A program made the translations under genes and the position numbers. DNA of 64,000 nt from IMG/VR virus record IMGVR_UViG_2529292828_000009; one strand, 5' to 3'. The first letter of the stretch is position 1, and every line of letters starts with the position of its first letter. Below the pieces are notes generated by a model that was not told the origin of the DNA, ran no database searches, and was given only the letters and a program-made list of their open reading frames with translations. Positions 44,170-63,659 of the stretch are shown piece by piece. This stretch comes from a virus. Lineage: Duplodnaviria; Heunggongvirae; Uroviricota; Caudoviricetes.

Positions 44170-44320
44170 TTCTAATCGAAGTCAAGATGCCCCTAATTAT
44201 GCCCCCAATGGCATCCGGATTTCAACGGACAATCTCGGACGACTCCGGACATAAGAATCACTGTACTCATTGAATTATAAGGAACAATTGGACTTTCTCG
44301 GATGATCTTGGAAGTGCTAA

Positions 44321-44344
44321 TGGTGCCGAAGGCCGGACTCGAAC
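44321..44344. repeat. 24-bp direct repeat of the leuX 3-prime end (att junction between the two islands)
   Basis: TGGTGCCGAAGGCCGGACTCGAAC identical to 63575-63598. Confidence 0.85.
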
Positions 44345-44691
44345 ATCGCAACTATCCTTATGATCTTTAGTAATTAAAGCAATCTACATTGTCGATGATA
44401 CCATCATTGATACCATCAGACCCGATTGATGATAATCGAACAGTAATAAAATATGACTAAACAATTTATGCTTCAACATAAGATTGAATGCTTTGATCTA
44501 CCATTTTAATGCAGTGGAAAAATTTTTAACACAATACTTAAGAAAAATAATTTCATATAAAAACTACATTTCATTTCATATAGTTAACACACCAAAAACA
44601 ACTGTATATAAACCCAGTAAAAAATGGTAGAATCACTATTGTGTTCAATTGTTGAACATTTATAATACATTTGTCGGATAGGGGGGTGTTT

Positions 44692-45279
44692 ATGCAAAGG
44701 AACACATACAACAAAGTAGGTCTATACATCCTATCTTTAGCTATGCTTTTTGTTTTTATTATTATCCTGACTGCCAAAATCCCCTTTTGCTTCACTTCGG
44801 ATTGTAGCTTCATAGGTTTGAAGAGACTTGTATTAACAAATATTGTTCCTATTGTTTGCTTTGTATTTTTTCTATTTAGTATTTATTTTTATAATAGATT
44901 AAAAAACATAACAAAATACAATGGACAAGATAGCGTTAAAATAACATCATGTCAAAGCGAAAGCTATGAAAGTTTAACATTCTTAGCAACATACATTGTA
45001 CCTTTTATGGGGTTTAGTTTTGAAGACATGCAAAAGAATATAGCATATCTTTTGCTTGTAGTAGTAATAGGCATTATTTTTATTAAAACAGACAAGTATT
45101 ATGCGAATCCAACTTTAGCTCTGTTTGGCTTTAAACTATACAGGGTAAATATACTACACCCAGGAAGTGGAGAAACAAAAAATCTGATAGCTATTTCAAA
45201 TGATGTATTAAAAGTGGACGATAATGTTTATTATAGTTTCTTTGATGAATTTGTTTTTATAGCAAGGAAAAAAATATGA
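44692..45279 (+). CDS. Four-TM membrane protein, KwaA-like (Kiwa defence system component A)
   Basis: Four hydrophobic helices; ATG at 44692 after a G-rich RBS; 4-nt overlap with the downstream gene; call is by architecture only. Confidence 0.45.
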   Translation: MQRNTYNKVGLYILSLAMLFVFIIILTAKIPFCFTSDCSFIGLKRLVLTNIVPIVCFVFFLFSIYFYNRLKNITKYNGQDSVKITSCQSESYESLTFLATYIVPFMGFSFEDMQKNIAYLLLVVVIGIIFIKTDKYYANPTLALFGFKLYRVNILHPGSGETKNLIAISNDVLKVDDNVYYSFFDEFVFIARKKI

Positions 45280-46223
45280 CTACTCAGCAGTTAAAAGAAA
45301 AAATTTCAAAAATAATTGATAACTTTAGCGGAATCAGGGTTGTATTTACTACTACTGCTAATGAACTAAAGCTTTCCAGAATTGAAGGGAGTGCATTAAA
45401 TAGCATAGCTGAAGGGTTTATTGACAAAATCAAAGAAGACATTATAAATAATGAAGATCTCACCTCACCATTGCTGTCCAATTTTGATGATAGAAAAAAT
45501 GCCTTGTTTAAATTTGATTACGAACAATATCCTGAAGAATTTAACAAAATCACTCAGGCCATCGCTATCCCTCCTAACTCACAAGATTATTATAACCCTT
45601 TAAATAAATTCACAGATGTGAAAGGAATTATAATTTTAATAAGTGGAGATAACAAATGCCTGGCTCTTTATAAAAACAAAACTAACCTTGCAGTATTGAG
45701 AAATAGCAGAAAAATGTTTAATTTAGTCCCTGACCCTGATGGATACTTGAAACAACTCCCTAATGAGATATTACGGTTAGATTTCAATTATGATCTATTA
45801 TCAATTGGTGAGGATTTTTACATTAAAAATCACAAGACTCTTGAAACTCAAATGAAATTTCATCAAGTGATTGAAGCCCAGGCAGTTATTGCTTTAAATT
45901 CTTTACGGGATTCACTACTAATTGAAGACATATCAGGTTTAGAAAAGAGTTCGAGAGAAATTTCATTCGCTAGAAAGTTGGCAAAAATCTCCAAACATTC
46001 TCCTGTTTTGGGGAAAATAGATACTAAAACAATTATCGATTATGTATCCCAACATAAATATTTATCTGCAATACTTCAGATTAATGAAGCAGGAAATAAG
46101 TTATTAATTAAAACCAAGACATCACAGAAGCATTTCATTAAACTCATGAGCGATGATTATTTACAATCAGATCTAACTAAAATAATATACATGAGCATAG
46201 CAAAAGACAGATTAGATGAATAG
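45276..46223 (+). CDS. KwaB-like soluble protein (DUF4868-like, Kiwa component B)
   Basis: 315 aa, coupled to the upstream 4-TM protein; call by size and architecture. Confidence 0.45.
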   Translation: MTTQQLKEKISKIIDNFSGIRVVFTTTANELKLSRIEGSALNSIAEGFIDKIKEDIINNEDLTSPLLSNFDDRKNALFKFDYEQYPEEFNKITQAIAIPPNSQDYYNPLNKFTDVKGIIILISGDNKCLALYKNKTNLAVLRNSRKMFNLVPDPDGYLKQLPNEILRLDFNYDLLSIGEDFYIKNHKTLETQMKFHQVIEAQAVIALNSLRDSLLIEDISGLEKSSREISFARKLAKISKHSPVLGKIDTKTIIDYVSQHKYLSAILQINEAGNKLLIKTKTSQKHFIKLMSDDYLQSDLTKIIYMSIAKDRLDE

Positions 46224-46237
46224 AATTTTAAGTAGAA

Positions 46238-46278
46238 GTGACAAATATTATAAACCATTCTTGAAATATATTTGTCAC
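46238..46278. terminator. Bidirectional hairpin between convergent genes
   Basis: 11-bp perfect inverted repeat GTGACAAATAT (46238-46248) / ATATTTGTCAC (46268-46278). Confidence 0.5.
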
Positions 46279-46287
46279 TATTACTAA

Positions 46288-46959
46288 TCATTCGCGTGCT
46301 TGATTATTTATGCTGGATGTTCTAATTGTTGCCGAATGCCAATACCCACCACTATATGTTCTTGCTATAGTAATAAATCCAGTACAGGTAATTACTGTCA
46401 TTAAAATCAGGAAAATATAATAGAAATTAAGCGGAGCTTTCAAATCAAAAGGAGGTAACGAATACACCAGCAACCCTATCCATACAATAGTTATAAATAA
46501 ACTAATAATTTGGTTTATCTTAGATACTGATATTGGAGATGGACCAGTAAGTAAATGAACCGAAAACTCTTTTATTCCTTTCGGTTTTGCACGAGATAAC
46601 ACCACTTTATATAGTGGACCATTAATATTATCTTCTAACATATCGACATGTTTTTCCCAGTTTCCCTGCCAATATTTACTACCACGGTTAACACAGAGCC
46701 AACCGAATGAAAATACAATTCCCAGTGAACACAGTAATACGGATAAATCTGTCTTAGCTGTAGAAGAGGAAGTCTGTATAGCAACAAAACCAGCTAAAGT
46801 TGCCGCTATAAAAGTCCAGAAATAAGTTGCTCTTTTCCAGTAATGGTCTATCTCATATTTCCGTATATCTAAAGCCTGTAGCAGAGCATTCTTATTACAG
46901 TCTCTATCATTAAGAAAACGGCTACGATATTCCTCATCTGAAAATGGAGTAATTGGCAT
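46288..46959 (-). CDS. Orphan multi-TM membrane protein with a SLATT-like N-terminal arrangement
   Basis: Charged helix, then TM pair (YFWTFIAATLAGFVAI ... LSVLLCSLGIVFSFGWLCV), then two further C-terminal TM helices; no match recognised. Confidence 0.5.
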   Translation of the reverse strand: MPITPFSDEEYRSRFLNDRDCNKNALLQALDIRKYEIDHYWKRATYFWTFIAATLAGFVAIQTSSSTAKTDLSVLLCSLGIVFSFGWLCVNRGSKYWQGNWEKHVDMLEDNINGPLYKVVLSRAKPKGIKEFSVHLLTGPSPISVSKINQIISLFITIVWIGLLVYSLPPFDLKAPLNFYYIFLILMTVITCTGFITIARTYSGGYWHSATIRTSSINNQARE

Positions 46960-46985
46960 ATTGATTTACCTCTATTTATAATAGT

Positions 46986-47013
46986 AAAAGAGGGGTCCCC
47001 CCCCCTCTTTTTT
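46986..47013 (-). terminator. Rho-independent terminator at the 3-prime end of the RM gene
   Basis: AAAAGAGGGG (46986-46995) / CCCCTCTTTT (47002-47011) stem with flanking T-run. Confidence 0.55.
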
Positions 47014-50000
47014 AGTTATTTTTAAACAAAACCTTTACTATTCCATCTATATCCCTTAGGAAACTCTCGAAAGAGGATCTATTAGCCTTAGCTTCATGAG
47101 CCTTTTTTGAAAGTTCAGACAGCTCACGATGCTTTTTATTACCTTCATCATAAAGAGGAACATTAATTGGAGGTCTGATTTTAAAAGTTCTGCTATCACT
47201 GGACTTCAGAATGTACTCCCCAGTGATTGATGAGTTAAAAATAGCACAAATGTAATGTGCCTCATCCAGGGTAATAAATTTACCATCTTGCCTCTGAGAT
47301 ATACTCACAGCATGGTTCTGAAATAAAGGTCTCTTTTTGTCACCCCATGGAGTATCCATTTGACTCACAACTGCTGCTGCCCATTTAGTGTTATCACGAA
47401 AACAAACAAAATGATCACCATAAGTATATTCACCTACACGAGCCAATGCGTAAAATGCAGTAATATTGCTTTTACCTATGATTTTGTCATTGTATCGAGT
47501 CTGCGACTCTAATAACTGTTTATTATTAATGAAATAGTCAGCCAACATAGGGCTTTCTTTAACAAGCTCATCTACAGGTATCGGTTTACGACTCAATTCT
47601 CTATATGGAAAGGGTACGAAGAACTCAACATCTTTTACCCCAAAAGGTTCAATATTTGTTCCTTTAATCAGGGGGTATATATGCTTGGTTTCAGCAAAAA
47701 TCATTTGTTTTGCCACTTTATACTTAGACTTGCCACCCTGATAATTTTCAAAAATTGCAGTGTTGTTAGCTTTTTTTGTCTTAAATTTCCATAAGAATAA
47801 TTCTTGAGGGAAAAATTCAATCCCTTCCCTGCCATGATATTCGCAATATCCACTGATATTTCTGTAATCATTGAGTTTTTCGGAATCTGAAGCATATGTA
47901 AAGGCTGTATTGCTTACACTAACAGTGCCAGCGATCTCTTTACGGATAGAGAACTCATGCGAAATAGCATTAAAATGCGTATGCTGTGAGTAGCTATCAA
48001 GGCTTCTTCCGGTTTTATTTTTCGTCAAAAATGTTAAAGGTATCCCTTTTAAATAATCGACATTTTTTGACGAGAATAAATAAGTCGCAAACTTGATTGT
48101 AACAGGCTTGAATGGATGCCCGGATTCACTCCAGTCGTATACCTCTTGGAGATATAGTTTTTGGTTATCCCCAAAGTTAAACTCTCGAAATCCTTCATAT
48201 GTTTGCTGGAAAAGGATATTTTGAGGCATAAGGAATGCCAATATGCCATCTTTCTCTAACCAGTTTTCAGCAGATACATTAGAAATTAATGCACAAATGT
48301 TAAGGTTTATACCACCAGTAAGCCTATCACCAGAAAATAGGCTCCTACTTAAGCATAAGCCTTTAATTCGTTCTCGATATCCTGCAGGTAAATTTTTCCA
48401 GTCAATCCATGGTGGATTACCAACAACCATATTAAATTTGCCTAAGTTTGCAGTGGTCAAAAAATTAGTGACTATTCTAGCCCAAATTCCATTCCAGTCT
48501 CTTTCTTCTAGTTCGACAAACTTATCTGATAAAGTTTTTAATTTTTCATAAATGCTAGGAGAACTACTAATATCCCCACTTACTTCGATTAATTTTGCAA
48601 AAACACTATCACGATCTCGAAGTTTAATATATCGTTCAATATCAACAATTGCTTTTGAGAACTTATGAGAATCACTCAAAGCTTGAGTAGGCATCTCGAT
48701 ATAAATCGAGCCTTGCAAAGTATTTATTTCGTATCGCAAACAGTCAATGCCATCAATTATGACCTTTTCTGGAACATACGATGCGTCACCAAGATAAATT
48801 GGAATTTCAACTTCGCTACCTTCATCAAGCAAATGTGATATATTGATGAAATAGTTGATTCTTGCAGTTAAAGCTGCAAGAGGATTTAAATCAATACCTT
48901 TGACAGATGTTATGACATCTTTTAATTTAGCTTTGCTATCAGTATGAGTACGACTCAGAACTTTACCTATTAATGTAATTATAAAGGTTCCGCTACCACA
49001 ACATGGATCAATTGCAGTCCAGTTGTTCTTATTTACAACATGCTCTTCAGCAGAGGATATCAAATGCTCTGCAAGCCATTCAGGAGTGTAAAATTCTCCA
49101 AGAGAATGTCTTACTTTATCAGGAATAATGTTCATGTATAGATCTTTGAAAAGATCGTATACTTTTTCACCCTCTTTGAAAAGGTTTCCTTCCTCATATT
49201 CACTTAGTAATGAAAATATATTTTTAATACTAATGAATATATCATCTCCCCATTGTTCCTTAGTACAATACCAAGAGAAAAAGTCACCTTCCAGCAGGTT
49301 CAAAATCCCATACTTCCTGAAAATAGCACCTTCTTCTAATGTGTATAAATAGTTTCTCATTGATTCAGAGTTACTATTGATCATATCTGAAAAATTATAA
49401 TCATTTTCAAATACAAGTCCAGATAATGTTTTATAAGCTATTATTTTTACAATAATCGCATATGCAGTCTGGAGAGCATAAAGAACTTTATATTCATCAT
49501 CGTTAGTAAGTAACCTATGACCAGCAATATCTTCAAGTGATAACTTTCGTTCTAAAATTGCTGTTTGCTGAGATTTATCATCATGTGCAAGTCTAAATAG
49601 CTCCTTCCATTCGTTGAAGAGCATTTGAGAGCGGCCCGTCATGTTATTTTCAAGAGCCGAAAGAAGATTACCTATTAATTGAGTTGTTAAAGATGGAGAT
49701 CCATAGCAAAAATCATCAACGATGTTTTTTGGATGCAATGCCTTCTTATTCAAAAGAACTAAAAGCCCGCAAATTTTTTTAATTGCATTCTTATCAAGCG
49801 GTTGCAACTTTGATGTTAAAATGCCATCAGTATCACGAATAAGGTAATTAATACCGTCTGTTAGCACTCCAACATAGCGTTGATTCCCTTCTAACTTTAA
49901 AGAATCAAGGTAAGCCTGGATTTGAAGCACAGCCTTATTAATATCATTATCTTTTTTTAATTTCTCTCTATGCTTAAACTCTATTACTAAAGATCCAATA

Positions 50001-50290
50001 CGACTATCGATACGCCCCTTACTGTTGCTTCTGCCGGTCGTGTTGTATTTAATACCATCAATAAAAATTTCTTTTTCGGGACGGTAATCAATACCAATGA
50101 AATCTTTAATGAAAGGAATAAAAGCAAGGTCGAAACCAGAAACAACTTCTGCTTCATTTTTGGCTAAATATGAGGACTCATTAATTTTTTTAGATATAAT
50201 ATCAGCAGCTAAAAGAAAATCTGAGTCAGTAACAATCTTTTCTTGAGCTTTGAACTTAATTTTTTTTTGAATTTCTTCTAACACAGCCAT
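47012..50290 (-). CDS. Type IIG restriction-modification enzyme, MmeI-like (PD-ExK nuclease + N6-adenine methyltransferase + target recognition)
   Basis: N-terminal IDSRIGSLVIEFK (D...ExK), SAM motif DPCCGSGTF, catalytic VGNPPW; 1092 aa in one polypeptide. Confidence 0.65.
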   Translation of the reverse strand: MAVLEEIQKKIKFKAQEKIVTDSDFLLAADIISKKINESSYLAKNEAEVVSGFDLAFIPFIKDFIGIDYRPEKEIFIDGIKYNTTGRSNSKGRIDSRIGSLVIEFKHREKLKKDNDINKAVLQIQAYLDSLKLEGNQRYVGVLTDGINYLIRDTDGILTSKLQPLDKNAIKKICGLLVLLNKKALHPKNIVDDFCYGSPSLTTQLIGNLLSALENNMTGRSQMLFNEWKELFRLAHDDKSQQTAILERKLSLEDIAGHRLLTNDDEYKVLYALQTAYAIIVKIIAYKTLSGLVFENDYNFSDMINSNSESMRNYLYTLEEGAIFRKYGILNLLEGDFFSWYCTKEQWGDDIFISIKNIFSLLSEYEEGNLFKEGEKVYDLFKDLYMNIIPDKVRHSLGEFYTPEWLAEHLISSAEEHVVNKNNWTAIDPCCGSGTFIITLIGKVLSRTHTDSKAKLKDVITSVKGIDLNPLAALTARINYFINISHLLDEGSEVEIPIYLGDASYVPEKVIIDGIDCLRYEINTLQGSIYIEMPTQALSDSHKFSKAIVDIERYIKLRDRDSVFAKLIEVSGDISSSPSIYEKLKTLSDKFVELEERDWNGIWARIVTNFLTTANLGKFNMVVGNPPWIDWKNLPAGYRERIKGLCLSRSLFSGDRLTGGINLNICALISNVSAENWLEKDGILAFLMPQNILFQQTYEGFREFNFGDNQKLYLQEVYDWSESGHPFKPVTIKFATYLFSSKNVDYLKGIPLTFLTKNKTGRSLDSYSQHTHFNAISHEFSIRKEIAGTVSVSNTAFTYASDSEKLNDYRNISGYCEYHGREGIEFFPQELFLWKFKTKKANNTAIFENYQGGKSKYKVAKQMIFAETKHIYPLIKGTNIEPFGVKDVEFFVPFPYRELSRKPIPVDELVKESPMLADYFINNKQLLESQTRYNDKIIGKSNITAFYALARVGEYTYGDHFVCFRDNTKWAAAVVSQMDTPWGDKKRPLFQNHAVSISQRQDGKFITLDEAHYICAIFNSSITGEYILKSSDSRTFKIRPPINVPLYDEGNKKHRELSELSKKAHEAKANRSSFESFLRDIDGIVKVLFKNN

Positions 50291-50835
50291 CGTTACATCT
50301 CTATGTTACATAGCAAATTTCTTATAATTTTACCACATTTCAATAAATATTTCATCATGTTTGTTTGGTATTATCCATACACTTGAGAAAAGTTAATTTC
50401 ACAATTAAGCAAGGGCTAACTCTCCGAAGCTCCGCTTCTTATAGTTCCCCTTGATTTTCTTTCTTTCAGTCAGAAAATACAGACATTTCATCATGAAAAT
50501 TGATAATTTATTTTTAGTATTAAAGTATTATCTCACCTTATCGCCGAACCGATTTGAGATTTAGTGCAACTATAAGTATAGTTCCCCTGACAAATAGCTT
50601 TCTTATTTAAGTAACGGTTAAACGATAGGGCCTCACTACTGGTGCCAATCATGCCATACTCTCAAATGCTACCCCTGCAGACAGGGCTCTACTACCGTAA
50701 AGCTGGCATAAAGTATTATAGTTACCTCTCTTAAAAGGAATTTCTAACTCATGTACCAGATCTACATGAGTTCTACATCCCCCTGATGAACTTAGCAGTG
50801 ATAGCTAACCGATACTGAAGTGTACTGCTGAGTGA

Positions 50836-50887
50836 TTTGACAAATAGAAAATATTAAGCTATAACAGTTGTATCCTACAGGATACAA
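50836..50887 (+). promoter_or_regulatory. Sigma70-like promoter (TTGACA-17 bp-TATAAC) followed by a perfect palindromic operator
   Basis: TTGACA 50836-50841, TATAAC 50859-50864, palindrome GTTGTATCCTACAGGATACAAC 50866-50887. Confidence 0.55.
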
Positions 50888-50899
50888 CATGAGAGCATT

Positions 50900-51157
50900 A
50901 TGCCAGAAATAGATAGGCAGGGAGGTTTGGCTTTCTACATGTACTTTTTCGATACGGGAAAACATCATGTTCCTCATGTACATGTAAAATTTGGCGAATA
51001 TGAATTGGTTTTAAGTATAGCGGATGCCCAAGAACTCGCAGGATACTTACCCGATAAATGGAGAAATAAAGCAAGAAAACATGTATTAACAAATAAACAG
51101 AAACTTAAGAAAATGTGGGTTCTCGCCGTGAATGGAAAACAGCCAGGAACTATCTGA
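50900..51157 (+). CDS. DUF4160-family protein
   Basis: MPEIDRQGGLAFYMYFFDTGKHHVPHVHV N-terminal signature. Confidence 0.6.
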   Translation: MPEIDRQGGLAFYMYFFDTGKHHVPHVHVKFGEYELVLSIADAQELAGYLPDKWRNKARKHVLTNKQKLKKMWVLAVNGKQPGTI

Positions 51158-51170
51158 AGAGGAGAGATTT

Positions 51171-51671
51171 ATGAGCAGAATTATAGACTTAGATATTATT
51201 GATGATTTTACTTTGCAGTTAACCTATGAAAGTGGTTTGTCTGGAAAATTTAACTTCTTTAAATATCGTGATTGCGAAGTTTTTAATAATCCTAAAAAAT
51301 TCCAGAAATTTGCTTTGCTACCTACTGGTGATCTCGAATGGTTAGGGGGCGAACGAGTTACTTCCTTAGAACTGTTAGATAAACTTGTTAATATAAGCTC
51401 TACTGAAAAGAGTAATATTTCAGGCACCACCGACATACTCATGATGGCGTTTCAAGATGCTGTTCGTGAAAATAGACCACAGATTATTCAGGCAGCTTTG
51501 CGAGCTATGCTTGATAAGCATGGTGTAGCAAATGTTGCAAATATGACAAATGGAAGTAGAACAAGTATTTATAAGTCCCTAAGCGAAAATACTAATGTAT
51601 CTATGTCTACTGTTATTAACCTTGCTCATAGTGTTATGGAAATTGAGAAAAAAGAAAAAGAAATATATTAA
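51171..51671 (+). CDS. DUF2442-like domain fused to a C-terminal HTH (antidote-like) domain
   Basis: MSRIIDLDIIDDFTLQLTYESG start after an AGGAGAG RBS; C-terminal LRAMLDKHGVANVANMTNGSRTSIYKSL HTH. Confidence 0.5.
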   Translation: MSRIIDLDIIDDFTLQLTYESGLSGKFNFFKYRDCEVFNNPKKFQKFALLPTGDLEWLGGERVTSLELLDKLVNISSTEKSNISGTTDILMMAFQDAVRENRPQIIQAALRAMLDKHGVANVANMTNGSRTSIYKSLSENTNVSMSTVINLAHSVMEIEKKEKEIY

Positions 51672-52013
51672 TCCCCCATTTTAAGAACGAGGATTGTACA
51701 CCCACCTGATTCAATAGCATTCTCTTAATTCGTTTATATGCCCTTGTCCTCATGATAGAATTGAGTACAGAATAGCTTCTCCAAAAAGGAAAATAATGCG
51801 GATAATTATAGCATTTTTAATTTATTCCCTGCGAGTTAAATACCTTTACTATTATAAGATAAAAACCCAAGCATTAGCATAACTTCATTTCATACATCAC
51901 ATCCCCTCACATTTTCTTCATTACATGTTGACATGAAATAAATTTACTTATAATTATATAATATCAATAAGTAATATAGGGCATTTTAACACACACATAT
52001 AAAAGGAGTTTAT

Positions 52014-52418
52014 ATGGAAGATATAAAAAACAAAGAAGACATTTCACCATCTACAGAAGTCAGGCTCTTCACCCCCACCATGAAAAAAACTTCTAAAGTG
52101 CATCCCAACGAGCGGAGATTACACTGTGTCAGTGTCCGATTAAATAAAAAAGAGTTAGAGAAGATTGAAGAACTCAGGGGTCGTTACCGTAGGGGAGAAT
52201 GGCTGCGTATGGTGTCGTTAAGCAAACTTCCTCCATTGATCCCAGAGATAAACAAGGATGTCTGGATCATGTTGGGGGAAATATCGCAGAAACTTAATCG
52301 TCTGATAGTACATCTGGATTCTAAAACCAGTGACAGCCCTCTGACTAAGACAGAAGCTTATGCAGTCAAAAAACAACTTCATGAGCTTCGTTTAAGCCTG
52401 ATAACTTCTCGTCCATAA
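52014..52418 (+). CDS. MobC-like relaxosome accessory protein
   Basis: 134 aa basic protein immediately upstream of the relaxase; RRLHCVSVRLNKKELEKIEELR. Confidence 0.5.
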   Translation: MEDIKNKEDISPSTEVRLFTPTMKKTSKVHPNERRLHCVSVRLNKKELEKIEELRGRYRRGEWLRMVSLSKLPPLIPEINKDVWIMLGEISQKLNRLIVHLDSKTSDSPLTKTEAYAVKKQLHELRLSLITSRP

Positions 52419-52430
52419 AAATTTCTAATT

Positions 52431-53621
<1,191 letters not shown>

Positions 53622-53845
53622 ACAGCTAGTTGTAAACACCTTTCGTAACCTAACTCAATTGCTTAGTAATAAATTTGTGTTTAGTCAAGAAAATATTGAT
53701 CGTTATTACAGATCGATAATCTAGTTATGATAGACAATAACTATCAAGTAACAATCATCGATCGGTACAAGCAATTTTACTAAAGCGAGTCGGTCATCGA
53801 GAATCTCTGTAAACGCACCATTTAATCTGCAACCCTGGGGTTGAT

Positions 53846-54118
53846 ATGAAAGACGAAACAATAAAGTGCCCGTTCTGCTTTACACAAAGTCCTCATGGTG
53901 TGCGGATTTGCAAAGGGTGTCATGCAAAGGTTGCTTACGGTGAAAGCCCGCTCAGTGTGGCATTCCTGTTTCAATTCGTGGCATTTGGTCTCGCGTGGTT
54001 AGCATTTTCGTGGACCGACAGCACTCTTGTATCAGTCATTACGTTTTTCGTAAGCATCATTATTCTTATCTATAAAATCAAAAGAATGTATGCAGACAGA
54101 GTTGTTTTTATACGGTGA
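53846..54118 (+). CDS. Small membrane protein: N-terminal zinc ribbon + two TM helices
   Basis: CPFC...CKGC followed by two hydrophobic helices. Confidence 0.45.
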   Translation: MKDETIKCPFCFTQSPHGVRICKGCHAKVAYGESPLSVAFLFQFVAFGLAWLAFSWTDSTLVSVITFFVSIIILIYKIKRMYADRVVFIR

Positions 54119-54159
54119 AATTAATTTCACACAATCGCAAACATAAAATGAGAAAGTAA

Positions 54160-54546
54160 ATGAACCGATTTATAACGTCCTCTTTTTTTATTATTGTCTT
54201 CCTGCTTTCTGGCTGTTCAACATCAGGGAACCAGAACCTTAAAAACGAAACACCACAAAGCCTCCAGTCAAAGATCATTAAAAACAAAACAACTAAGACG
54301 GAATTACTCTCTAAGTTAGGTGAGCCTGATACAAGAACCACACTCGATGACGGAAATGAGCAGTGGAAATATTTCATGACTAACAATCAGTTCAGTGCAA
54401 CGACTTTCATTCCAGTTGTGGGGCTGTTTACTGGCGGTTCCCAAACTCAGTCTAAAACTCTTGAAATCGACTTCAAGGGAGAGACTGTAAGTAAATGGAC
54501 TTTTTCCTCTGACAATAACAACACCAAAACTGGAATTCTTAATTAA
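54160..54546 (+). CDS. Predicted lipoprotein
   Basis: Signal peptide with lipobox LLSGC. Confidence 0.5.
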   Translation: MNRFITSSFFIIVFLLSGCSTSGNQNLKNETPQSLQSKIIKNKTTKTELLSKLGEPDTRTTLDDGNEQWKYFMTNNQFSATTFIPVVGLFTGGSQTQSKTLEIDFKGETVSKWTFSSDNNNTKTGILN

Positions 54547-54553
54547 TTGTTTT

Positions 54554-54880
54554 TTGGATAAGAAAATGAAAATATACTCAATTATCACAGTTATCATTAC
54601 CACCTTCCTTCTAACCGCATGTAACAATGAACCATCGCAAGACGATATATACAATGTTTTCAAAAGTGTTGTAGATAGAACAAATACAAGTATGAAAGCT
54701 CTTGATTCAAGAGTTACAGAAAAAGATCTTTTAAGAATCGATTACGTGAAGAAAGTTAGTTGCACAGAAGAAGCAAACAATGTTTATAACTGCATTGTCG
54801 ATGCCTCTATTAGTAATATGAAACAAACAAAACCAGTAAAACTAATCAAATCTGATGGTGTCTGGAAAGAAGTTCAGTAG
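54554..54880 (+). CDS. Predicted lipoprotein
   Basis: Signal peptide with lipobox LLTAC. Confidence 0.5.
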   Translation: MDKKMKIYSIITVIITTFLLTACNNEPSQDDIYNVFKSVVDRTNTSMKALDSRVTEKDLLRIDYVKKVSCTEEANNVYNCIVDASISNMKQTKPVKLIKSDGVWKEVQ

Positions 54881-54930
54881 TAGCCTATATCAAGAAGTCT
54901 TTTAGCCCCTGCACAGGGGCTTTTTATTGC

Positions 54931-55365
54931 CTATAACCTGACGGTTCTTACGCGAACGTCATAGGTTAACTCTTTCTCAATTACTTTCATTTCATATTGT
55001 GCTTTGACAGTAGCAGAGATTTCTTCTGCTTTTTCTTGATTATTATCGATGTAATTAACAAGCGAGTTTAGCTCCCTGATAACAGCATCCTTATTGTTTA
55101 ATCTTTGTAGTAGATTGCTTGTAAGACTTTTGTATACCGAGCTAAACATAGTCATTATGTTATCAATATTACGATTGGATTTGGAATAAATCCTTTCAGG
55201 GTAGAAATACTTCAAATGGTATCCCACAAAAATTAAGTAAAGCTGGTATGAGAAACTTTTATCACCTGGCTGGTATCGTTTTGAGATATATTTATCGACG
55301 ATAATGATAAGTTGCTCTTCCAGAGTAAACTCTGGATAGATAATGTTTTTGTCCATAAAATGCAT
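54931..55365 (-). CDS. Hypothetical protein
   Basis: 144 aa ORF, AT-rich codon usage, no motif recognised. Confidence 0.35.
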   Translation of the reverse strand: MHFMDKNIIYPEFTLEEQLIIIVDKYISKRYQPGDKSFSYQLYLIFVGYHLKYFYPERIYSKSNRNIDNIMTMFSSVYKSLTSNLLQRLNNKDAVIRELNSLVNYIDNNQEKAEEISATVKAQYEMKVIEKELTYDVRVRTVRL

Positions 55366-55452
55366 CCTTGCATTAGTTAAATAGTCTTCCTGACCATATA
55401 TTTATATTTATCGCATTTATTAAACTTGTCAATAGGTGTAACCTATCAAATA

Positions 55453-55839
55453 TTATTTTTTATTAAATGGCCTATTCAACTGTTCCATAGTAAGACCGTG
55501 TCTATAAGCATTATACTGCCAATAGCTAAATTGCTCTTTGTATCTATTGTTCTGTTTTTTCAACATTTCGTTTTCGGCTTTAAGGTTTATTATTTGTTGT
55601 GCCGCAATAGTTAAGTTAGCTGGTTTCTTTAGACCAGATTTTTTCAAATTGGACAAACTTTTCTTTATTCTATATGCTTCAACAACTTCATCATGAGCAC
55701 TTAAAGATTGCCTTGTGATAGTTCTGTTTAGATTCTTATACACTGATTCACATAAATCACTCCATGTGATTTTACCGTCCCAAGTCAGTATAATGTGTTT
55801 AATTGCTTTTATTTCACTCCTGTTCAAATGTTTTGCCAT
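55453..55839 (-). CDS. Small basic protein downstream of the recombinase array (TnpC-like by size and position)
   Basis: 128 aa, 14 bp after the 624-aa recombinase gene. Confidence 0.4.
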   Translation of the reverse strand: MAKHLNRSEIKAIKHIILTWDGKITWSDLCESVYKNLNRTITRQSLSAHDEVVEAYRIKKSLSNLKKSGLKKPANLTIAAQQIINLKAENEMLKKQNNRYKEQFSYWQYNAYRHGLTMEQLNRPFNKK

Positions 55840-55853
55840 AAGTATCTCCTGTT

Positions 55854-57728
55854 TTAATTATTCAAAAGCTTATTAATTCTTTCCAAATTTTTTTCATGGT
55901 GTTGCAACCATTTGTCTGCACCATAATCACCATTTTCATAAGCGATCTGAGTTATTCTCTTTAATTGCATTACTTTCTCTCGGACAGATTGCAGTCTAAT
56001 TCTATCTACTGAGTTAATGTCCGGTGTTTCATTATCACATTCAATAAGATGATTAATTTTTGCACAAGGCTTGATTAAATAGTTATGTACACAGTAACCA
56101 AATTCAGTTAAGTGTATTGCACCTTGATTAAGGTTATCAAAATCAATTGTCAGTTCATTTGTGGGTATTGACTCCCTTTGACAGTAATTACTCCTATTCA
56201 ATTTAATAGCTTTGATTTTATCTAACATATCTTCTTCCGACACATGGTTATAAACTCTGTTCTGATTCGCATTGATACGACCAGACCATTTAGCTATATC
56301 CAGTTCAGACATTTCACCATAATGGGCTATTGTGTTTAAAAGGTGCCGTGGCTGGTGTGAGCGAATAAGTAGTGGTTTACCTTCATCATCATAATATCCA
56401 TATCGGGAAAATATATTTTTATAATTCATCTCATAGCTTTTTTTTCTTTGTATGTCACTGAAAAAGAAACTTTTAGTAGGCTTATAAAATGTGAAAATTG
56501 AAGTCATTCTTGATAAAGAAAATTGATCAGTATTGAGCAAGCATAAAGCATTACTAAATTTTATGGATTTTTCTTTATCATACCATGGAAAGTCTCTGCT
56601 AAAATTAGAACTAATAATTTCCCACAAATCACTCAATGAATAGTTGTAATCATTGTGGTTTAAGAAGCTTTTCCCACCATCCAAACTCGTTCTTTTAATT
56701 TTTAAAACACATGATTTATGATCAAATAAATGATATCCCAGTGCATGGCAAACTTGTACAACGGTCAATTTAGCTTTTTCATCAACTGTTGGGCAAAGCT
56801 CATGTCGGTAAAATTTATCCGGGTACTTTTCGCACCAGTGAGCAAGTGCTCTTGCATTTTGTGATAAGGAAAGTAATCTTCTAATCGCTTTCTTTGCAAC
56901 TGGTATCATAACCCGTGGAATCCATTTGATATTAGGGCCATACCCTTTTACCGAATAAAATCTCAAACCATATCTTTCGATACCCTTGCCATCTATTTGT
57001 GTAATCTCACAATCAGCAGGTAAGGCTAAAATTTCAGAAATTCTGCTCGGACAACAAAGTAGAAGTGCAAATACTGAACTGGTGAACTTATCCCTTGGAC
57101 TCAGTAACTCATCATTTTGAGAAAAAATATCAGCAATAGCGAGCAATGCTTCTTCATCTGGTAACTTATCGCTTCGGTGATAATCCTCAATCTCAGGAAG
57201 ATAATTGTTTTTGACTTTCTGTTTTACATGGTTTTTCCATGAGATATATCCTGACTTCACAAGATTATGTTCACACAGAAACTTTGATATTTTTTCAAGC
57301 TGTATTCCACATTTAGCCAAAACGTTACCTTCAAAATATTTACTCCCGATCTGCATTGCCTCATCGAAAACAACGGCTGTAACATTATAAATGAGACCAG
57401 TGTTCTGAACCTGCAAAAGGGCCTGTTCGAGACATCGCAAGGCCATCATAATAACCCCATAATTTTTCAATGGTTTCAATGTGTGTTGATATCTGATATA
57501 TGCTTTCGCAAAATTGATATAATCTTCGTGCATTGCATCAATGGAATCAAAGATTTTATTTCCAATCCCTATTTTTCTAAATGTGACATATCCTTTCCAG
57601 GCATACTGCTCCCAATCCTGAGTTTGGGTTAGTCCGGACAGTTGATAGCGACAAAATTTTATGAACTCATTATAATTTTCTTCTACAAGAATATGTTTTT
57701 TTGATTTGAACAAAATAATATTATTCAT
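55854..57728 (-). CDS. Tyrosine recombinase-like protein, third of three (624 aa)
   Basis: C-terminal SHQPRHLLNT ... NQNRVYNHV pattern; ATGA overlap with upstream gene. Confidence 0.5.
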   Translation of the reverse strand: MNNIILFKSKKHILVEENYNEFIKFCRYQLSGLTQTQDWEQYAWKGYVTFRKIGIGNKIFDSIDAMHEDYINFAKAYIRYQHTLKPLKNYGVIMMALRCLEQALLQVQNTGLIYNVTAVVFDEAMQIGSKYFEGNVLAKCGIQLEKISKFLCEHNLVKSGYISWKNHVKQKVKNNYLPEIEDYHRSDKLPDEEALLAIADIFSQNDELLSPRDKFTSSVFALLLCCPSRISEILALPADCEITQIDGKGIERYGLRFYSVKGYGPNIKWIPRVMIPVAKKAIRRLLSLSQNARALAHWCEKYPDKFYRHELCPTVDEKAKLTVVQVCHALGYHLFDHKSCVLKIKRTSLDGGKSFLNHNDYNYSLSDLWEIISSNFSRDFPWYDKEKSIKFSNALCLLNTDQFSLSRMTSIFTFYKPTKSFFFSDIQRKKSYEMNYKNIFSRYGYYDDEGKPLLIRSHQPRHLLNTIAHYGEMSELDIAKWSGRINANQNRVYNHVSEEDMLDKIKAIKLNRSNYCQRESIPTNELTIDFDNLNQGAIHLTEFGYCVHNYLIKPCAKINHLIECDNETPDINSVDRIRLQSVREKVMQLKRITQIAYENGDYGADKWLQHHEKNLERINKLLNN

Positions 57729-59029
57729 AGTTGATTCACCTCACTGCGATCAATCGGAATAAAAAACATACATTGATTGCAAGGAAATCCTGAATTCTGA
57801 CTCTGGCATCTACTTGAAGAAAAAAATTTGAAATGACTACTCTTTTTCGATTTGATTCCGTTCATAAAAATATCAGCGACAAATGACAATTGTTCTGAAA
57901 CAGCGGAATCAATCCTTTCAACACTGTCAGCATGATTTTTAATATAAATCCCCGCACTTGAAGTAGATGAATGATCCAATAATTCAGCTATAGTATTAAC
58001 ATTATGCCCATTCTTAGCCAGCATAGTTGCTATTGTATAACGAAGCCTACGAGGAGTAATATTTAGTATCGAACCGGTACGGTTGGATATTACATTCCCA
58101 TTATTAACAATACTTTTCAATGCTACATTAGCAATTGTAGGCTTCGCATATAATTTATTATATTCCAGAAGAATTGAACCTGTTATGGATAAATCTGAGA
58201 GTTTTTCCTCATTTAAGAAAATAGGAACTTCTCGTTTAGAATAATCATCAAGAGTTTTTCCAAGAGCTTGTTCAACAAGTTTCACTGATTGATTAGCTTG
58301 CAATTGAACAATTGATGCAACCTCTGATATTATTGCAAGTTCTCGATATCGTAGTTCTTTACCCCGTTGTTTTACTCGTGGCACTGAAATTACATATTCT
58401 ACTTTGCCATTATCTAAGTTCTTTTGAAGAAGGTCTTTATATTTCAACATAACTAACTGCTGAGGTCTTCTACCTGTAAGACTGATCAATAGTGATATTG
58501 CATAATGTGGCAGTGACAGTTCACCTTTTCTATATGCATGATTCATAGCCTTAATCAAAGAAGTATGTTCTTCTTTATTTAATGGTCCCTCTGTTGGATC
58601 ATCTTGAAGCACAGACTGACCAGATTTTTTTATTTTTAGGTCCAAATGCTTTAACAGTTCTACCGCACTTTCATCTATTCCCGGATATCCTAACTCAAAC
58701 CATTTAATCAAAAATGGTCGTAAAACGCGAAATGATGCTGGGGCTTTTGATAATTTCTTATTTTGATATTCAATTAGAACCTTATCATCAATATGAGTAG
58801 GAGATAGTTTACGGATAAGACTCTCCATATTTCTAACAATATTTTTCACATACAAATAGCTGTTGCTATTAAAATAATATTGTACTGTATATACAAACCC
58901 ACAAACCAAATTTTCGTTCATAGCATATATTAAGTTTGTAAGATTGATTCCGTTATTTTCAATCGAACTGACGACTTTATGTTCATGCAAAGACATTTTA
59001 TCAGATTTATTTTTAATTAAATTATTCAT
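57725..59029 (-). CDS. Tyrosine recombinase, second of three
   Basis: LTGRRPQQL ... RRLRYTIATMLAKNGHNVNTIAELLDHSSTSSAGIYIKN; start MNNLIKNK overlapping upstream stop by 8 nt. Confidence 0.6.
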   Translation of the reverse strand: MNNLIKNKSDKMSLHEHKVVSSIENNGINLTNLIYAMNENLVCGFVYTVQYYFNSNSYLYVKNIVRNMESLIRKLSPTHIDDKVLIEYQNKKLSKAPASFRVLRPFLIKWFELGYPGIDESAVELLKHLDLKIKKSGQSVLQDDPTEGPLNKEEHTSLIKAMNHAYRKGELSLPHYAISLLISLTGRRPQQLVMLKYKDLLQKNLDNGKVEYVISVPRVKQRGKELRYRELAIISEVASIVQLQANQSVKLVEQALGKTLDDYSKREVPIFLNEEKLSDLSITGSILLEYNKLYAKPTIANVALKSIVNNGNVISNRTGSILNITPRRLRYTIATMLAKNGHNVNTIAELLDHSSTSSAGIYIKNHADSVERIDSAVSEQLSFVADIFMNGIKSKKSSHFKFFSSSRCQSQNSGFPCNQCMFFIPIDRSEVNQL

Positions 59030-60224
59030 CAAATTCTCCTTTGAATAGTTGCTCTTGTTGTTCAAGTGCAGTTTTTTTCGATAGCTCATAAATATGCCTG
59101 CGATTATAAATCATTGAAGTTTCTGAACCCGGTCGCCATCCCATGAGATAAGAACGGATTTGTTGCTCTTTTTCATCGGATATGTCCTGATTCTTGTCTA
59201 TTGCTTTCGAAAACTCATAATTCCATGTATGTCTGAGTTTGTGACCTGTCAATCCCCCTAGAAGTGAGGAGGATTGACGAACAACACTCACCACTTTGTG
59301 ATATGAAGAAAATGAAATAGGTTGCCCTTGAGTTTTTCCTTCCTTATAAGTAATAAACAGGAAATCATGTTTGTTAGAATTTTTTATGTTTCTTCGATCA
59401 TTCAGAATATAATCTGAAATTTCAAACATGAGCTTTTTATCAGCAATTAATTTCCTCTCACAAGTTTTAACTAAAGGCTGATACACTCGCGGATCTGTTT
59501 TATCATTTGCTCTTCTTCTTATTGCAATTGTCGATTCTGCAAAATCTATATCACCAATTCGCAGATTCAAAAGTTCACCTGCTCTCAGGCCAAAGCAGTG
59601 TAATAGCAGGAATATTAGATTGTTTCTTTTTTGCACTTTTTCTGAAAAAGGATTTAATTTGCTACCCGGTGCAAGAATGCTAAACAAAGAATCCAATTGT
59701 TCATTATTTAAACTTTTTTCTATATCCATATTATATTTATCATTATTTCTCGGTTTCTTTCGTTTTATGTTGTTAATGAAATCTAAAATATATTTGAGAG
59801 TATCCTTCTGTCCTGTATGAGAAAGATGTATTTTGCACAGCCATTCCAGATAGTTAGCTATGGTTGTTATCCGAAAGTACTTAGTTGGTTTTTTGACATT
59901 TGAACTTCTAAAATTATCATTCTCGCCATCTCGAAAATTGAATGAAGTGAATTCGATCAAATCTTCAATTTCATGAGGAGCCAGAAATATCCTTTTCTGA
60001 ATTCTTTCATCAATATTGATCTCTTTCCTCATAAAGAATCGATATAACAATGAAATGCTACCGGCAATAACCTTCATTGTTGATATAGACTCTGACCGAT
60101 TCCTGACCTGTGTTGTTATATACAAGTTAGGATAATACAATGGTTCACCAGTATTTTTATTTACGATATGACAATATCTCTCACCATTTTCGAACATAAA
60201 AGAATCCACACAAATACTACGCAT
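59022..60224 (-). CDS. Tyrosine recombinase, first of three
   Basis: GLRAGELLNLRIGDID ... GHKLRHTWNYEFS ... MIY catalytic-domain pattern. Confidence 0.6.
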   Translation of the reverse strand: MRSICVDSFMFENGERYCHIVNKNTGEPLYYPNLYITTQVRNRSESISTMKVIAGSISLLYRFFMRKEINIDERIQKRIFLAPHEIEDLIEFTSFNFRDGENDNFRSSNVKKPTKYFRITTIANYLEWLCKIHLSHTGQKDTLKYILDFINNIKRKKPRNNDKYNMDIEKSLNNEQLDSLFSILAPGSKLNPFSEKVQKRNNLIFLLLHCFGLRAGELLNLRIGDIDFAESTIAIRRRANDKTDPRVYQPLVKTCERKLIADKKLMFEISDYILNDRRNIKNSNKHDFLFITYKEGKTQGQPISFSSYHKVVSVVRQSSSLLGGLTGHKLRHTWNYEFSKAIDKNQDISDEKEQQIRSYLMGWRPGSETSMIYNRRHIYELSKKTALEQQEQLFKGEFDE

Positions 60225-60519
60225 ATTTTCCTCCTAAACTTTACAAAAAGTATAATTCCAATATATTAATAATAAGCATTTCGTAGATTTACAAATTTAT
60301 TTGAATTGATTAAGCCATTTAGTTAAATTAAAACAGTGAGATAGATGTTTATTCCTGTCAAATTATCATCTGGTAGATCTAGTTATTATTATGTACACCT
60401 AATACCTCGAAAACTATCTCACTGCCTTGCTAATAAACGATCATAAAAATAATGTAAGTTATTCTGTAAAGTTTTAAGCAAAAATATACAGCCAAACTTT
60501 ACATTTTCATAAATATTTA

Positions 60520-60819
60520 TTAATCCAACAGATATAGAATTATCCGCTTCGCCAAGAGTTTCATTTCATCAGGGCATTTAATTAGCGAGAACCAGGTCTC
60601 GTAAACATATATCTGTTTGGAAGCATTAAGCTCAGAGATCGAGTCTAAAGGTTCTCTCAAATTTCCTACAAGGTACTGACTGAGCCAGTAAATTATTTCT
60701 TTATTAAACTCGTTATTGGGTAAGTCATAAATCACTTCTTGGTCAAAGATCTTGTAAAACCGATCTCCGCATAAATTGCACATATGGTTATCCTCACTCA
60801 CAAATTCTTCGATATTCAT
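60520..60819 (-). CDS. Hypothetical protein
   Basis: 99 aa ORF downstream of the AlpA-like gene. Confidence 0.35.
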   Translation of the reverse strand: MNIEEFVSEDNHMCNLCGDRFYKIFDQEVIYDLPNNEFNKEIIYWLSQYLVGNLREPLDSISELNASKQIYVYETWFSLIKCPDEMKLLAKRIILYLLD

Positions 60820-60840
60820 AAAAATCTCTCCCAGGTTTAA

Positions 60841-61047
60841 TTAAGCAACATTAATTCTGCTTGATTCGATAACTGATTGAATCCACTCGTCAACTTCACT
60901 CTCGACAAAAGCAACGGCACGAACACCGATCTTAACGGGGGCCGGAAACCGACCTTCACTGATCAGACGATAAATCCAGGCCTTGCCGAAACCAGTTCGT
61001 TTCAAGACTTCTGGTAAACGAATTAAGCTTTGATTAGTTGTACTCAT
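60841..61047 (-). CDS. AlpA-family regulator / excisionase-like
   Basis: LIRLPEVLKRTGFGKAWIYRLISEGRFPAPVKIG HTH. Confidence 0.7.
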   Translation of the reverse strand: MSTTNQSLIRLPEVLKRTGFGKAWIYRLISEGRFPAPVKIGVRAVAFVESEVDEWIQSVIESSRINVA

Positions 61048-61213
61048 TTGGCTGTCTCCTCCGCTTCCGTTACGAAGATATTAGCCACACAGATTCGTAT
61101 CTATGAAGGGAATGCTGATAACTGAAAAGTTAGATGAGGGAAGAATGAAAGGAAATTCCGGGGAAGAAAAATATTTACGCCCTCCCCTTGACAATTAACA
61201 TGATGATTTACAA

Positions 61214-62044
61214 CTAGAAAGATCCGAGTTCCGAAATCGGTATGTTGCGGAGATGGCTGTTTTTGCTGATAAAATATTCCAGACTACGGGTTGTTTCGCC
61301 ATTCAATGACTTCTCTGCAACAGGCCTGTCTGTATCTTTAATGTGATCTTCTCCTCTGATCTCATTTGTAAAGTCGGGATACAAGACACGAGACAAGACC
61401 ATATTTGAGATTTTTACTTTTTTAAACTTTGCCCAAATCAATAAATCCATCATTGGGATAATATTGTAATCGACAAGTTTTCTTATTTTTGCAAGTCCAA
61501 TTTTTTCTGTTTTCACTGGCTCAATTTCATATTCTTTTCTAAGATCTGGTAGCATCGTTTGTAAGGCTGTTATAATTTCTTCATCGCTGGACATTCCTAA
61601 ATCAAATGAAACATACATCTTGCTGCTATTTTGGTTAAGAAAAAAGTCCCTCATAGTTTTTGTAATTGGCTTCTTTTTCAACTCTTTTTTGAAATCGCCA
61701 TTTTCTTCAAAAAAATCCATGCTAAACATTATTAACTTGTTCTCTAATTTTTTTATATCACCAAAGCTAACCTGCGCAACATGTCTTTGGCCCTTGCCAA
61801 AATGACCATGATTATTATCTTGTATGCTTAAAATAGGATTACCTTCAAGGATAGACCTTAAATTTTGATTATCATCTTCCCAACCAAAATTTACACTGTC
61901 GAAAATCGCTTCTCTAAAGGCAAGCTCTGTATGCAGTTCTTTGATTGTAAGTGATTTTAACTGCTCATAGTTTTCGAGACTAAACCAGCTTTTTAATTCT
62001 TCATAAGGGCTTACTACTTTCATTAATCCCTCCACTGTATTCAA
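61214..62044 (-). CDS. Hypothetical protein adjacent to the integrase
   Basis: 276 aa ORF, no motif recognised. Confidence 0.4.
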   Translation of the reverse strand: MNTVEGLMKVVSPYEELKSWFSLENYEQLKSLTIKELHTELAFREAIFDSVNFGWEDDNQNLRSILEGNPILSIQDNNHGHFGKGQRHVAQVSFGDIKKLENKLIMFSMDFFEENGDFKKELKKKPITKTMRDFFLNQNSSKMYVSFDLGMSSDEEIITALQTMLPDLRKEYEIEPVKTEKIGLAKIRKLVDYNIIPMMDLLIWAKFKKVKISNMVLSRVLYPDFTNEIRGEDHIKDTDRPVAEKSLNGETTRSLEYFISKNSHLRNIPISELGSF

Positions 62045-62134
62045 AGCTTGAATGAGTTAACACTGCTTATTTGAATTAATTCTCCCTTAACAAGGTTGAT
62101 AAGGGAGAACGATTAATTAACTACTTATTCATAG

Positions 62135-63385: not shown

Positions 63386-63574
63386 CAGTTGATACCTCCA
63401 GTGTTGGTACCAAAATCAATCGAACCGGGAATACCATCAGTTATACCATCATCGGTTGGTATATGTTCAAGGAACTGAGTAGACGTGAACAGACTAAGCC
63501 AAGTTAGAAACCTGCTTAACTTACTGTTTTTATGGACTAAAGTAGACGTTAGTAGACTTAAAAAAAGCTTTGTA

Positions 63575-63659
63575 TGGTGCCGAAGGCCGGACTCGAACCG
63601 GCACGTATTTCTACGGTTGATTTTGAATCAACTGCGTCTACCGATTTCGCCACTTCGGC
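63575..63659 (-). tRNA. leuX: tRNA-Leu (leuX-type)
   Basis: Reverse complement reads GCCGAAGTGGCGAAATCGGTAGACGCAGTTGATTCAAAATCAACCGTAGAAATACGTGCCGGTTCGAGTCCGGCCTTCGGCACCA. Confidence 0.9.

Follow-up and report, generated by a model that had tools for sequence, protein, structure and literature searches.

Just upstream of mobC is the usual place for an origin of transfer (oriT). The strand that is nicked in IncP systems leads from the relaxase side through an inverted repeat to the nick, and the relaxase genes enter the recipient last. The IncP-type nick consensus is YATCCTG▼Y (▼ marks the nick). The relaxosome accessory proteins F TraY and R388 TrwA bind at oriT and at a nearby promoter, and TrwA represses its own operon. 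According to Ares-Arroyo et al. (2026, bioRxiv 10.64898/2026.01.13.699239), the oriTs of mobilizable islands of chromosomes were mostly unknown, and 52 families are predicted there from the regions that precede relaxases. Here, a stretch of 64,000 nucleotides, recorded in IMG/VR as a virus of Caudoviricetes (IMGVR_UViG_2529292828_000009; the whole stretch is called the window), is analyzed. In a gap between genes at 50291–50899, the 12-bp sequence TATAGTTCCCCT is present twice on the plus strand, at 50440–50451 (copy 1) and 50577–50588 (copy 2). Copy 1 is probably part of the inverted repeat of a MOBP-type oriT at 50407–50483, and copy 2 is tentatively considered as a second site for the relaxosome protein that would bind the oriT arm. 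The whole explanation, in which the oriT is combined with copy 2 as a second site of an accessory protein, is given a probability of about 0.5.

The probable oriT is a conserved 77-bp element with two hairpins (50407–50483), matched by its covariance model at 90 bits and seen as a single copy in the window. Hairpin 1 (50411–50452) consists of the outer stem AAGGG/CCCTT, a 13-bp imperfect stem AACTCTCCGAAGC/GCTTCTTATAGTT and the loop TCC. Copy 1 is its right arm. Hairpin 2 (50454–50478) pairs ATTTTCT with AGAAAAT around an 11-nt loop. On the minus strand, the left edge is the putative nick region GTTAGCCCTTGCTT (50407–50420), which is the most conserved block and forms a sharp left boundary of conservation. 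The conserved block AAGCAAGGGCTAAC is almost invariant and lies beside hairpin-forming inverted repeats. Nucleotides 50407–50420 are invariant in 19 of the 19 variants in the alignment, and one G>T change is seen in the locus L176 (L numbers designate the loci compared).

Both hairpins are supported by paired changes. Among the 19 distinct variants, 88.8% of cells are paired when the hairpins are taken together, with 86% for hairpin 1 and 96% for hairpin 2. Changes on both sides are found in 26 cells vs. 10.4 in shuffles; none of 500 shuffles reaches 26, and slid controls are far lower. Hairpin 1 shows compensatory changes from C-G to T-A, and three of the seven pairs of hairpin 2 show compensatory changes. 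The apical loop of hairpin 1 varies from 3 to 10 nt among the variants. As single-stranded DNA, the minus strand of the element folds with z = −4.2.

In a sensitive search of 5426 complete Escherichia coli genomes, a conserved stretch of approximately 80 bp that includes copy 1 was found in 526 (~10%), always on the chromosome, with a median of one place per genome. The relaxase family is present in 427 genomes. The element is also seen in 17 IMG/VR contigs and in Leclercia, Raoultella, Brenneria, and Erwinia; the last four are the real elements among the 120 matches of a genome-collection scan with the 14-mer AGCAAGGGCTAACT, nearly all of which are chance matches. Wherever the element and the mobilization genes were both seen, the element is upstream of mobC and the relaxase gene and on the same strand as these genes (the window, L001, L002, L004, L006, L008, L096, L147, L159, L162, L164, L168, and L173). 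In L176, where the element was located by blastn, it is upstream of mobC only, and no relaxase gene is called there. The distance from the start of the element to mobC is approximately 0.2 kb in L001, L096, L159, and L164. Elsewhere, cargo of 0.6 to 11.6 kb is present in between, with 11.6 kb in E. coli E24377A.

Plasmids contain counterparts of the element upstream of mobC (L149, L150, and L151). In pHNGDW697-2, pBRST7.6, and pWES-1, the sequence AGC(A/C)AGG(G/T)(C/G)TAAC and an inverted repeat are found approximately 125 bp upstream of mobC. The block of the nick region is common to plasmids as AGCCAGGGCTAAC and AGCAAGGTGTAAC. The counterpart in pHNGDW697-2 from Pseudomonas is AGCCAGGGCTAACTCGGC-TCC-GCCGAGTT, and the relaxase of this plasmid shows 47.6% identity. 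In the IncQ2-type plasmids pBRST7.6 and pWES-1, which are typed as mobilizable and MOBP, the counterpart is AGCAAGGTGTAACC...GGTT, with relaxases of 41–42% identity. Searches of plasmid DNA with the gap or the element gave nothing significant at the DNA level, and these counterparts were reached through the relaxase protein only. The element is read as an oriT because it is conserved upstream of mobC and the relaxase gene on the same strand, and because the plasmid counterparts share this position. The closest plasmid relaxase (51% identity) is that of L148 (OX345050.1), a 3.6-kb Salmonella record labelled as a plasmid. At 2240–2290 of this record, on the minus strand and upstream of mobC, a hairpin 2-like sequence is all that is seen of the element, with a coding sequence in place of hairpin 1 and the conserved block. 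This linear record may be a fragment of an assembly.

The two mobilization genes of the island are preceded by a separate promoter-like site at 51928. The first (52014–52418, plus strand) encodes a MobC-like relaxosome accessory protein of 134 aa, 40% identical to the annotated MobC of the IncQ2 plasmid pBRST7.6. Residues 34–57 show weak matches to RHH_1 and to NikA-like proteins, and in a structure model of low confidence, two helices come after a conserved CVSVRLN motif. The protein is probably a ribbon-helix-helix protein, and its sequence makes it a reasonable candidate for the binder of the inverted-repeat arms. The second gene (52431–53621, plus strand) encodes a MOBP-like relaxase with a nuclease domain of the MobA/VirD2 type (PF03432, E = 4.7e-23); the match to NF041893, TraI/MobA(P), is below the cut-off of that model. 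The relaxase is 41–51% identical to plasmid relaxases, and its homologues are typed as MOBP by MOB-suite. At 53262–53332, the relaxase gene contains a perfect hexanucleotide repeat, (CCTGCT) x 11.8, which is in frame and encodes a Pro-Ala run. Relaxases of near-identical islands range from 383 to 413 aa, consistent with variation in the copy number of this repeat.

The arrangement is similar to that of the IncP/IncQ-2 (MOBP) oriTs of RP4 and of the pTF-FC2 type, in which an inverted repeat beside a short conserved block lies upstream of an accessory gene and a PF03432 relaxase gene. The IncQ2-type plasmids share the block AGCAAGG(G/T)(C/G)TAAC at the same position, together with a relaxase and a MobC of 41% and 40% identity, respectively. 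In contrast to these oriTs, the island element is chromosomal and part of an integrative element, and ATCCTG is absent. Its inverted repeat continues across the putative nick region, so that the site is nearly palindromic, and a second covarying hairpin comes next; up to 11.6 kb of variable cargo separates the element from the mobilization genes. Compared by kind only, the candidate oriT families of Ares-Arroyo et al. (2026) are also similar, being conserved non-coding regions upstream of island relaxases with defence genes near the oriT. That study uses the first intergenic region that precedes the relaxase, and its method would miss the island element wherever cargo separates it from mobC.

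By analogy with the IncP/IncQ2 (MOBP) origins, and based on the observation that both conservation and cargo blocks begin at the left edge of the element, the relaxase is proposed to nick the minus strand there, in GTTAGCCCTTG▼CT, at about 50408/50409. This strand and this position have about an even chance of being correct. If so, transfer would run leftwards; the restriction-modification and Kiwa defence cargo would enter the recipient first, and the mobilization genes last. Copy 1 would then be the arm of the large inverted repeat farther from the nick. On the minus strand, the conserved block is GTTAGCCCTTGCT, and that of the IncQ2-type plasmids is GTTACACCTTGCT, which is a resemblance only. 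The IncP hexamer ATCCTG is not found in the element, where the nearest equivalent is CCCTTG. The inverted repeat reaches the outermost bases, AAGCAAGGG...CCCTTG(C/A)TT, that is, AA(G/T)CAAGGG...CCCTTG(C/A)TT, at 50407–50456 of the window. In L176 (2506–2578), AATCAAGGG is paired with CCCTTGATT, a compensatory change at the outermost pair (G...C, or T...A). In sequence, the putative nick region is mirrored on the plus strand, and the site is nearly a full palindrome.

The alignments with relatives also delimit the cargo. In E. coli BA22372 (L001), the left cargo is present in full with 97.6% identity, and the alignment extends only up to 50458. Enterotoxigenic E. coli H10407 (L002) shares only 50404–50460, and then the relaxase gene onwards. 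L008 has the same right-hand side and a different left cargo, and its homology begins exactly at 50405. In L173 and L176, the MobC alleles of which are ~76% identical, 50405–50481 is shared at 90–92%, and homology is lost just after hairpin 2. As judged from these alignments, the element marks sharp boundaries between variable cargo blocks. Left of the element in E. coli 97.3 (L003), a frameshifted fragment of a MobC-like gene is present (4021–4333 and 5006), which suggests tandem or decayed islands at that site.

This location exactly at cargo boundaries, like the covariation of both hairpins, which would also be seen in an RNA, could be explained if the 77-bp element were a structured RNA, a terminator, or the site of a site-specific recombinase that exchanges cargo, with copy 1 as a part of it. 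A T-rich stretch follows hairpin 1 and is flagged as terminator-like, and some copies of the element (L030, L166, L169, and L170) have no relaxase gene within 7–12 kb. However, no Rfam family matches the element at its gathering score, and only noise is seen at 50250–50950 with E values up to 10. No conserved promoter is present upstream of the element; the flank on the left varies and in most cases contains a divergent gene. An apical loop of 3 to 10 nt does not fit a fixed crossover spacer, each island has one copy and no array, and the same motif is at the canonical oriT position in mobilizable plasmids. Such alternatives to an oriT are quite improbable. An integron attC site, which is likewise an imperfect palindrome with a variable centre and outer AAC...GTT motifs at the boundaries between cargo genes, was considered separately and rejected: the covariance model has a single match in the window and a median of one place per genome, and the integrase is a tRNA-targeting tyrosine integrase. 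Unlike attC sites, the element forms no array and is not accompanied by an IntI-type integrase, its sequence itself is strongly conserved, and it is linked to a relaxase. A literature search by sequence string gave nothing relevant.

Variants of the element with a long apical loop (GAAGCCGCTGCGCTTGCTTC), including those of L030, L166, L169, and L170, often have no relaxase gene within 7–12 kb rightwards. Some of them may be islands that kept the oriT alone. In E. coli E24377A, the relaxase gene is ~11.6 kb away (12018 vs. 24056 in L147), with a type I restriction-modification system, Kiwa, and ankyrin genes in between.

Copy 2 (50577–50588) is outside the element. A short imperfect palindrome, AGTGCAACTATA-AG-TATAGTTCCCCT (50563–50588), has copy 2 as its right arm; 10 of 12 positions of this palindrome are complementary across a 2-nt spacer, and it forms only a weak hairpin as single-stranded DNA. 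Only 0.2% of 12-mers in the whole window, and 1.7% in the gap, are arms of such an inverted repeat. A sigma-70-like match, TTGAGA-17-TATAGT (50554–50582, plus strand; 10 of 12 consensus positions), overlaps the palindrome, and the first half of copy 2 corresponds to the -10 hexamer of this match. Directly after copy 2, TGACAAATAG is seen (50588–50597), which recurs as the -35 region of the promoter-like site of DhiT (50838–50847); a similar sequence, CCCAGACAAATAG, follows hairpin 2 in L173 (~2335–2350). These may be a common promoter motif or chance.

A random 12-mer repeat rarely has one copy in the arm of a functional inverted repeat and the other in a palindrome, and for this reason copy 2 may be more than chance. 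It could be recognized by the same protein as the oriT arm, most likely the MobC-like accessory protein. By analogy with F TraY and R388 TrwA, a sequence of the oriT arm recurs nearby in a palindrome that overlaps a promoter-like site, and the island encodes a probable ribbon-helix-helix protein. Unlike the secondary sites of TraY and TrwA, the putative second site is not seen in the other family variants checked, and it is part of the cargo DNA, at a distance of 1.4 kb upstream of the mobilization genes. Regulatory binding sites, as the preliminary description suggested, are plausible, and this is close to the explanation preferred here, with copy 1 as an arm of the probable oriT and copy 2 as an arm of a separate palindrome.

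Several points weigh against the explanation as a whole. For the oriT, the nick site is drawn from position, conservation, and the partial resemblance of CCCTTG▼C to YATCCTG▼Y alone. Either strand may be the nicked one, because the inverted repeat continues to both sides across the putative nick region, where its pairing covaries in L176. For the accessory protein, the structure model has a pLDDT of 61, too weak for a fold search. For copy 2, its place is in the variable cargo slot (~50484–51995, from hairpin 2 to the ribosome-binding site of mobC), which also holds the DhiTA toxin-antitoxin pair, outside the conserved backbone. Sigma-70-like matches are no more frequent in the region than in shuffles, and the match at copy 2 is a lead only. 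In 13 other oriT variants checked, no second copy of their own arm was found within ~1.5–2.5 kb with up to two mismatches; a second site is therefore no feature of this family. With the covariance model of the element, the region of copy 2 obtains no score at all. In close relatives, single bases of copy 1 are changed (C>T at 50447 in L008 and A>C at 50443 in L020), which breaks the perfect identity with copy 2. Finally, roughly one or two 12-bp repeats per 64 kb are expected by chance.

The last of these points can be specified. Among 2000 dinucleotide-preserving shuffles of the 609-bp gap, 1.7% contain a direct repeat of at least 12 bp. When the real window is divided into 208 overlapping tiles of 609 bp, such a repeat is found in 11 of them, corresponding to six distinct places. 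Repeat length alone is weak evidence, because one or two such repeats per window are expected by chance, and the caution in the preliminary description that a chance match is possible was justified. Other tiles with direct repeats of at least 12 bp are at ~5186–5800, ~17081–18000, ~20436–21350, and ~32331–33250; the longest repeats there are 13 bp near 17.1–18.0 kb and 18 bp near 32.3–33.2 kb. The 12-mer itself has no further match in the 64-kb window on either strand, even with one mismatch allowed. A degenerate third copy, TTATAGTTACC (50716–50726, plus strand), matches 10 of 11 bases and is probably chance, with no palindrome partner and no flanking similarity.

The positions of the two copies, reported earlier as a perfect direct repeat 137 bp apart, were reproduced by reading the sequence and by pattern search; 137 bp is the spacing from start to start. 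The repeat is exactly 12 bp long, preceded by T in copy 1 and G in copy 2, and followed by T and G, respectively. If a gap of one base is allowed, the match continues to TATAGTTCCCCT(T)GA. The 11-mer ATTTCATCATG is found at 50349–50359 and 50485–50495, with a spacing of 136 bp, almost that of the 12-mer. Its copies sit in blocks that are separate in relatives, only the first being present in L001 and only the second in L008. The 136-bp spacing is accidental, because the two copies lie in independently recombining blocks, and this cautions against giving a meaning to the 137-bp spacing.

Such figures favour a coincidence, in which copy 2 would be an unrelated sequence in the DhiTA cargo segment, maybe the operator of another regulator or nothing. 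The accidental spacing of ATTTCATCATG, the absence of similarity beyond the 12-mer, the lack of a second arm copy in the 13 other oriT variants and the imperfect conservation of copy 1 point in the same direction. However, copy 2 is itself half of a palindrome and copy 1 is inside a 45-bp hairpin, and this joint configuration is much rarer than the repeat alone. A coincidence has a probability of about one in three. Copy 2 is invariant in 20 near-identical loci, the divergence of which is too low to be read as constraint. A scan of viral contigs for the copy 2 palindrome gave three unrelated matches. Three homologues of DhiT were found in other contexts, the nearest with 53% identity, and they are uninformative for dating copy 2.

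Copy 2 could alternatively be the trace of a partial duplication of the element. The left arm of its palindrome, AGTGC-AACTATA, is similar to that of hairpin 1, AGGGCTAACTCT, including the C that is unpaired in hairpin 1, and the right arm and the two bases that follow match with one gap. The palindrome would then be a decayed hairpin 1 without the apical part CCGAAGCTCCGCTTCT, a pseudo-oriT that is functionless or has residual affinity for the relaxase. But the equivalent of the nick region is not preserved (GCACTAAAT vs. GCCCTTGCT on the minus strand), the covariance model has no match at copy 2, flanking similarity is absent, and relatives show no intermediate form. Such a vestige is unlikely. 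Duplication of a unit of ~137 bp, in tandem or ancient, was rejected: Tandem Repeats Finder reports nothing in the gap, and offset statistics and local alignments give short exact words only. At offset 137, the identity is 0.316, inside the range of other high-scoring offsets (up to 0.334), and local alignments show no similarity around the two copies beyond the 12-mer.

The preliminary description also proposed that the 12-mers are the ends of a small inserted element, as would be expected for a target-site duplication. The direct repeat itself speaks for this, and nothing else does. Short perfect direct repeats ~140 bp apart are similar to the target-site duplications of insertion sequences and miniature inverted-repeat transposable elements. 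Unlike these, the intervening DNA is not bounded by terminal inverted repeats, an empty site with one copy is not seen in any relative, and the intervening DNA begins with part of the conserved element. Specifically, the first ~30 bases of the intervening 125 bp carry hairpin 2, which is contiguous with copy 1 in all relatives, many of them without copy 2. Beyond the conserved element, the intervening segment matches nothing elsewhere in the 5426 E. coli genomes or in 72,556 plasmids, and it encodes nothing convincing. Conservation of the segment in relatives lacking the repeat, which the description had named as telling against its proposal, is found on the side of copy 1 only; there, the element is present in hundreds of genomes with other arms and no second copy. 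These comparisons refute an insertion.

It can be speculated that the element is an uncharacterized, nearly palindromic oriT with a nick region on both strands. It would serve as a fixed hinge between the two cargo slots of defence islands, and cargo would be exchanged exactly at its edges by relaxase-mediated joining of oriT to oriT, or by initiation at one oriT and termination at another. The mini-palindrome of copy 2 with CCCCTG would then be a second site for the relaxase or the accessory protein, and an alternative point of termination or initiation. This extended version is unlikely.

The preferred explanation, an oriT with copy 2 as a second accessory-protein site, places these sequences in a mobile island. 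The island (44320–63598, 19.3 kb, 35% G+C) is delimited by exact 25-bp direct repeats on the plus strand, at 44320–44344 on the left and at 63574–63598 on the right; the latter is the 3′ end of tRNA-Leu(CAA) (63575–63659, minus strand). It is an integrative mobilizable element inserted in tRNA-Leu, because these attachment repeats, the tRNA-Leu gene, an integrase and a relaxase are present. The integrase gene (62135–63385, minus strand) encodes a tRNA-targeting tyrosine integrase, with a match to PRK09692 below the cut-off of the model. In E. coli, integrative mobilizable elements at tRNA and tmRNA hotspots are known to carry defence systems (PMC10121019). The left cargo consists of KwaA/KwaB (44671–46223, plus strand), a RipA-like gene (46288–46959, minus strand), and an Eco57I-type restriction-modification gene (47012–50290, minus strand). 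The last is the first gene of the left cargo block, with the RipA-like gene and KwaAB next, and its annotation is that of the 97.6%-identical block in L001. Backbone genes follow the relaxase gene on both strands (53846–62044). Outside the island, ~8 kb left of its left end, C4 antisense RNA and isrK are matched next to each other (83 and 72 bits, respectively) at 36194–36421 on the minus strand, an immunity region of a P1/P7-like or related prophage.

The AT-rich and gene-free setting that had been described for the repeat is seen here as well. The gap of 609 bp has 35% G+C vs. 44% for the window, and is bordered by the start of the Eco57I-type restriction-modification gene on the left and by the DUF4160 gene on the right. 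Its small open reading frames are short low-complexity frames only. The DUF4160 gene (50900–51157, plus strand) encodes the toxin DhiT, and DhiT and the antitoxin DhiA together occupy 50900–51671 on the plus strand, with NF048015 of NCBIfam above and NF048016 below the cut-off. DhiTA has its own promoter-like site, TTGACA (50837–50842) and TATAAC (50860–50865), with a 17-bp spacer. Just after this site and 12 bp upstream of the DhiT start, there is a perfect 10-bp palindrome, GTTGTATCCT-AC-AGGATACAAC (50867–50888), which likely serves the DhiTA toxin-antitoxin operon as its operator. The minus strand of this palindrome contains TATCCTGT, a letter match to the IncP-type nick consensus.

The 12-mer itself is a small detail and of low interest, and it points to the probable oriT of a mobilizable island family common in E. 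coli and present in other Enterobacterales, an element of moderate interest for the study of mobile defence islands. If copy 2 is indeed a second binding site, it would show that newly acquired cargo can be placed under the control of the relaxosome; otherwise, it is an ordinary finding. The 77-bp sequence can be used as a marker for finding such islands, including those with cargo between oriT and relaxase or with no relaxase nearby. The cargo of the family includes Kiwa, restriction-modification, retron, CBASS-like, and toxin-antitoxin systems. The edges of the probable oriT would explain where the variable cargo blocks begin and end, and would predict which genes are the first to enter a recipient.

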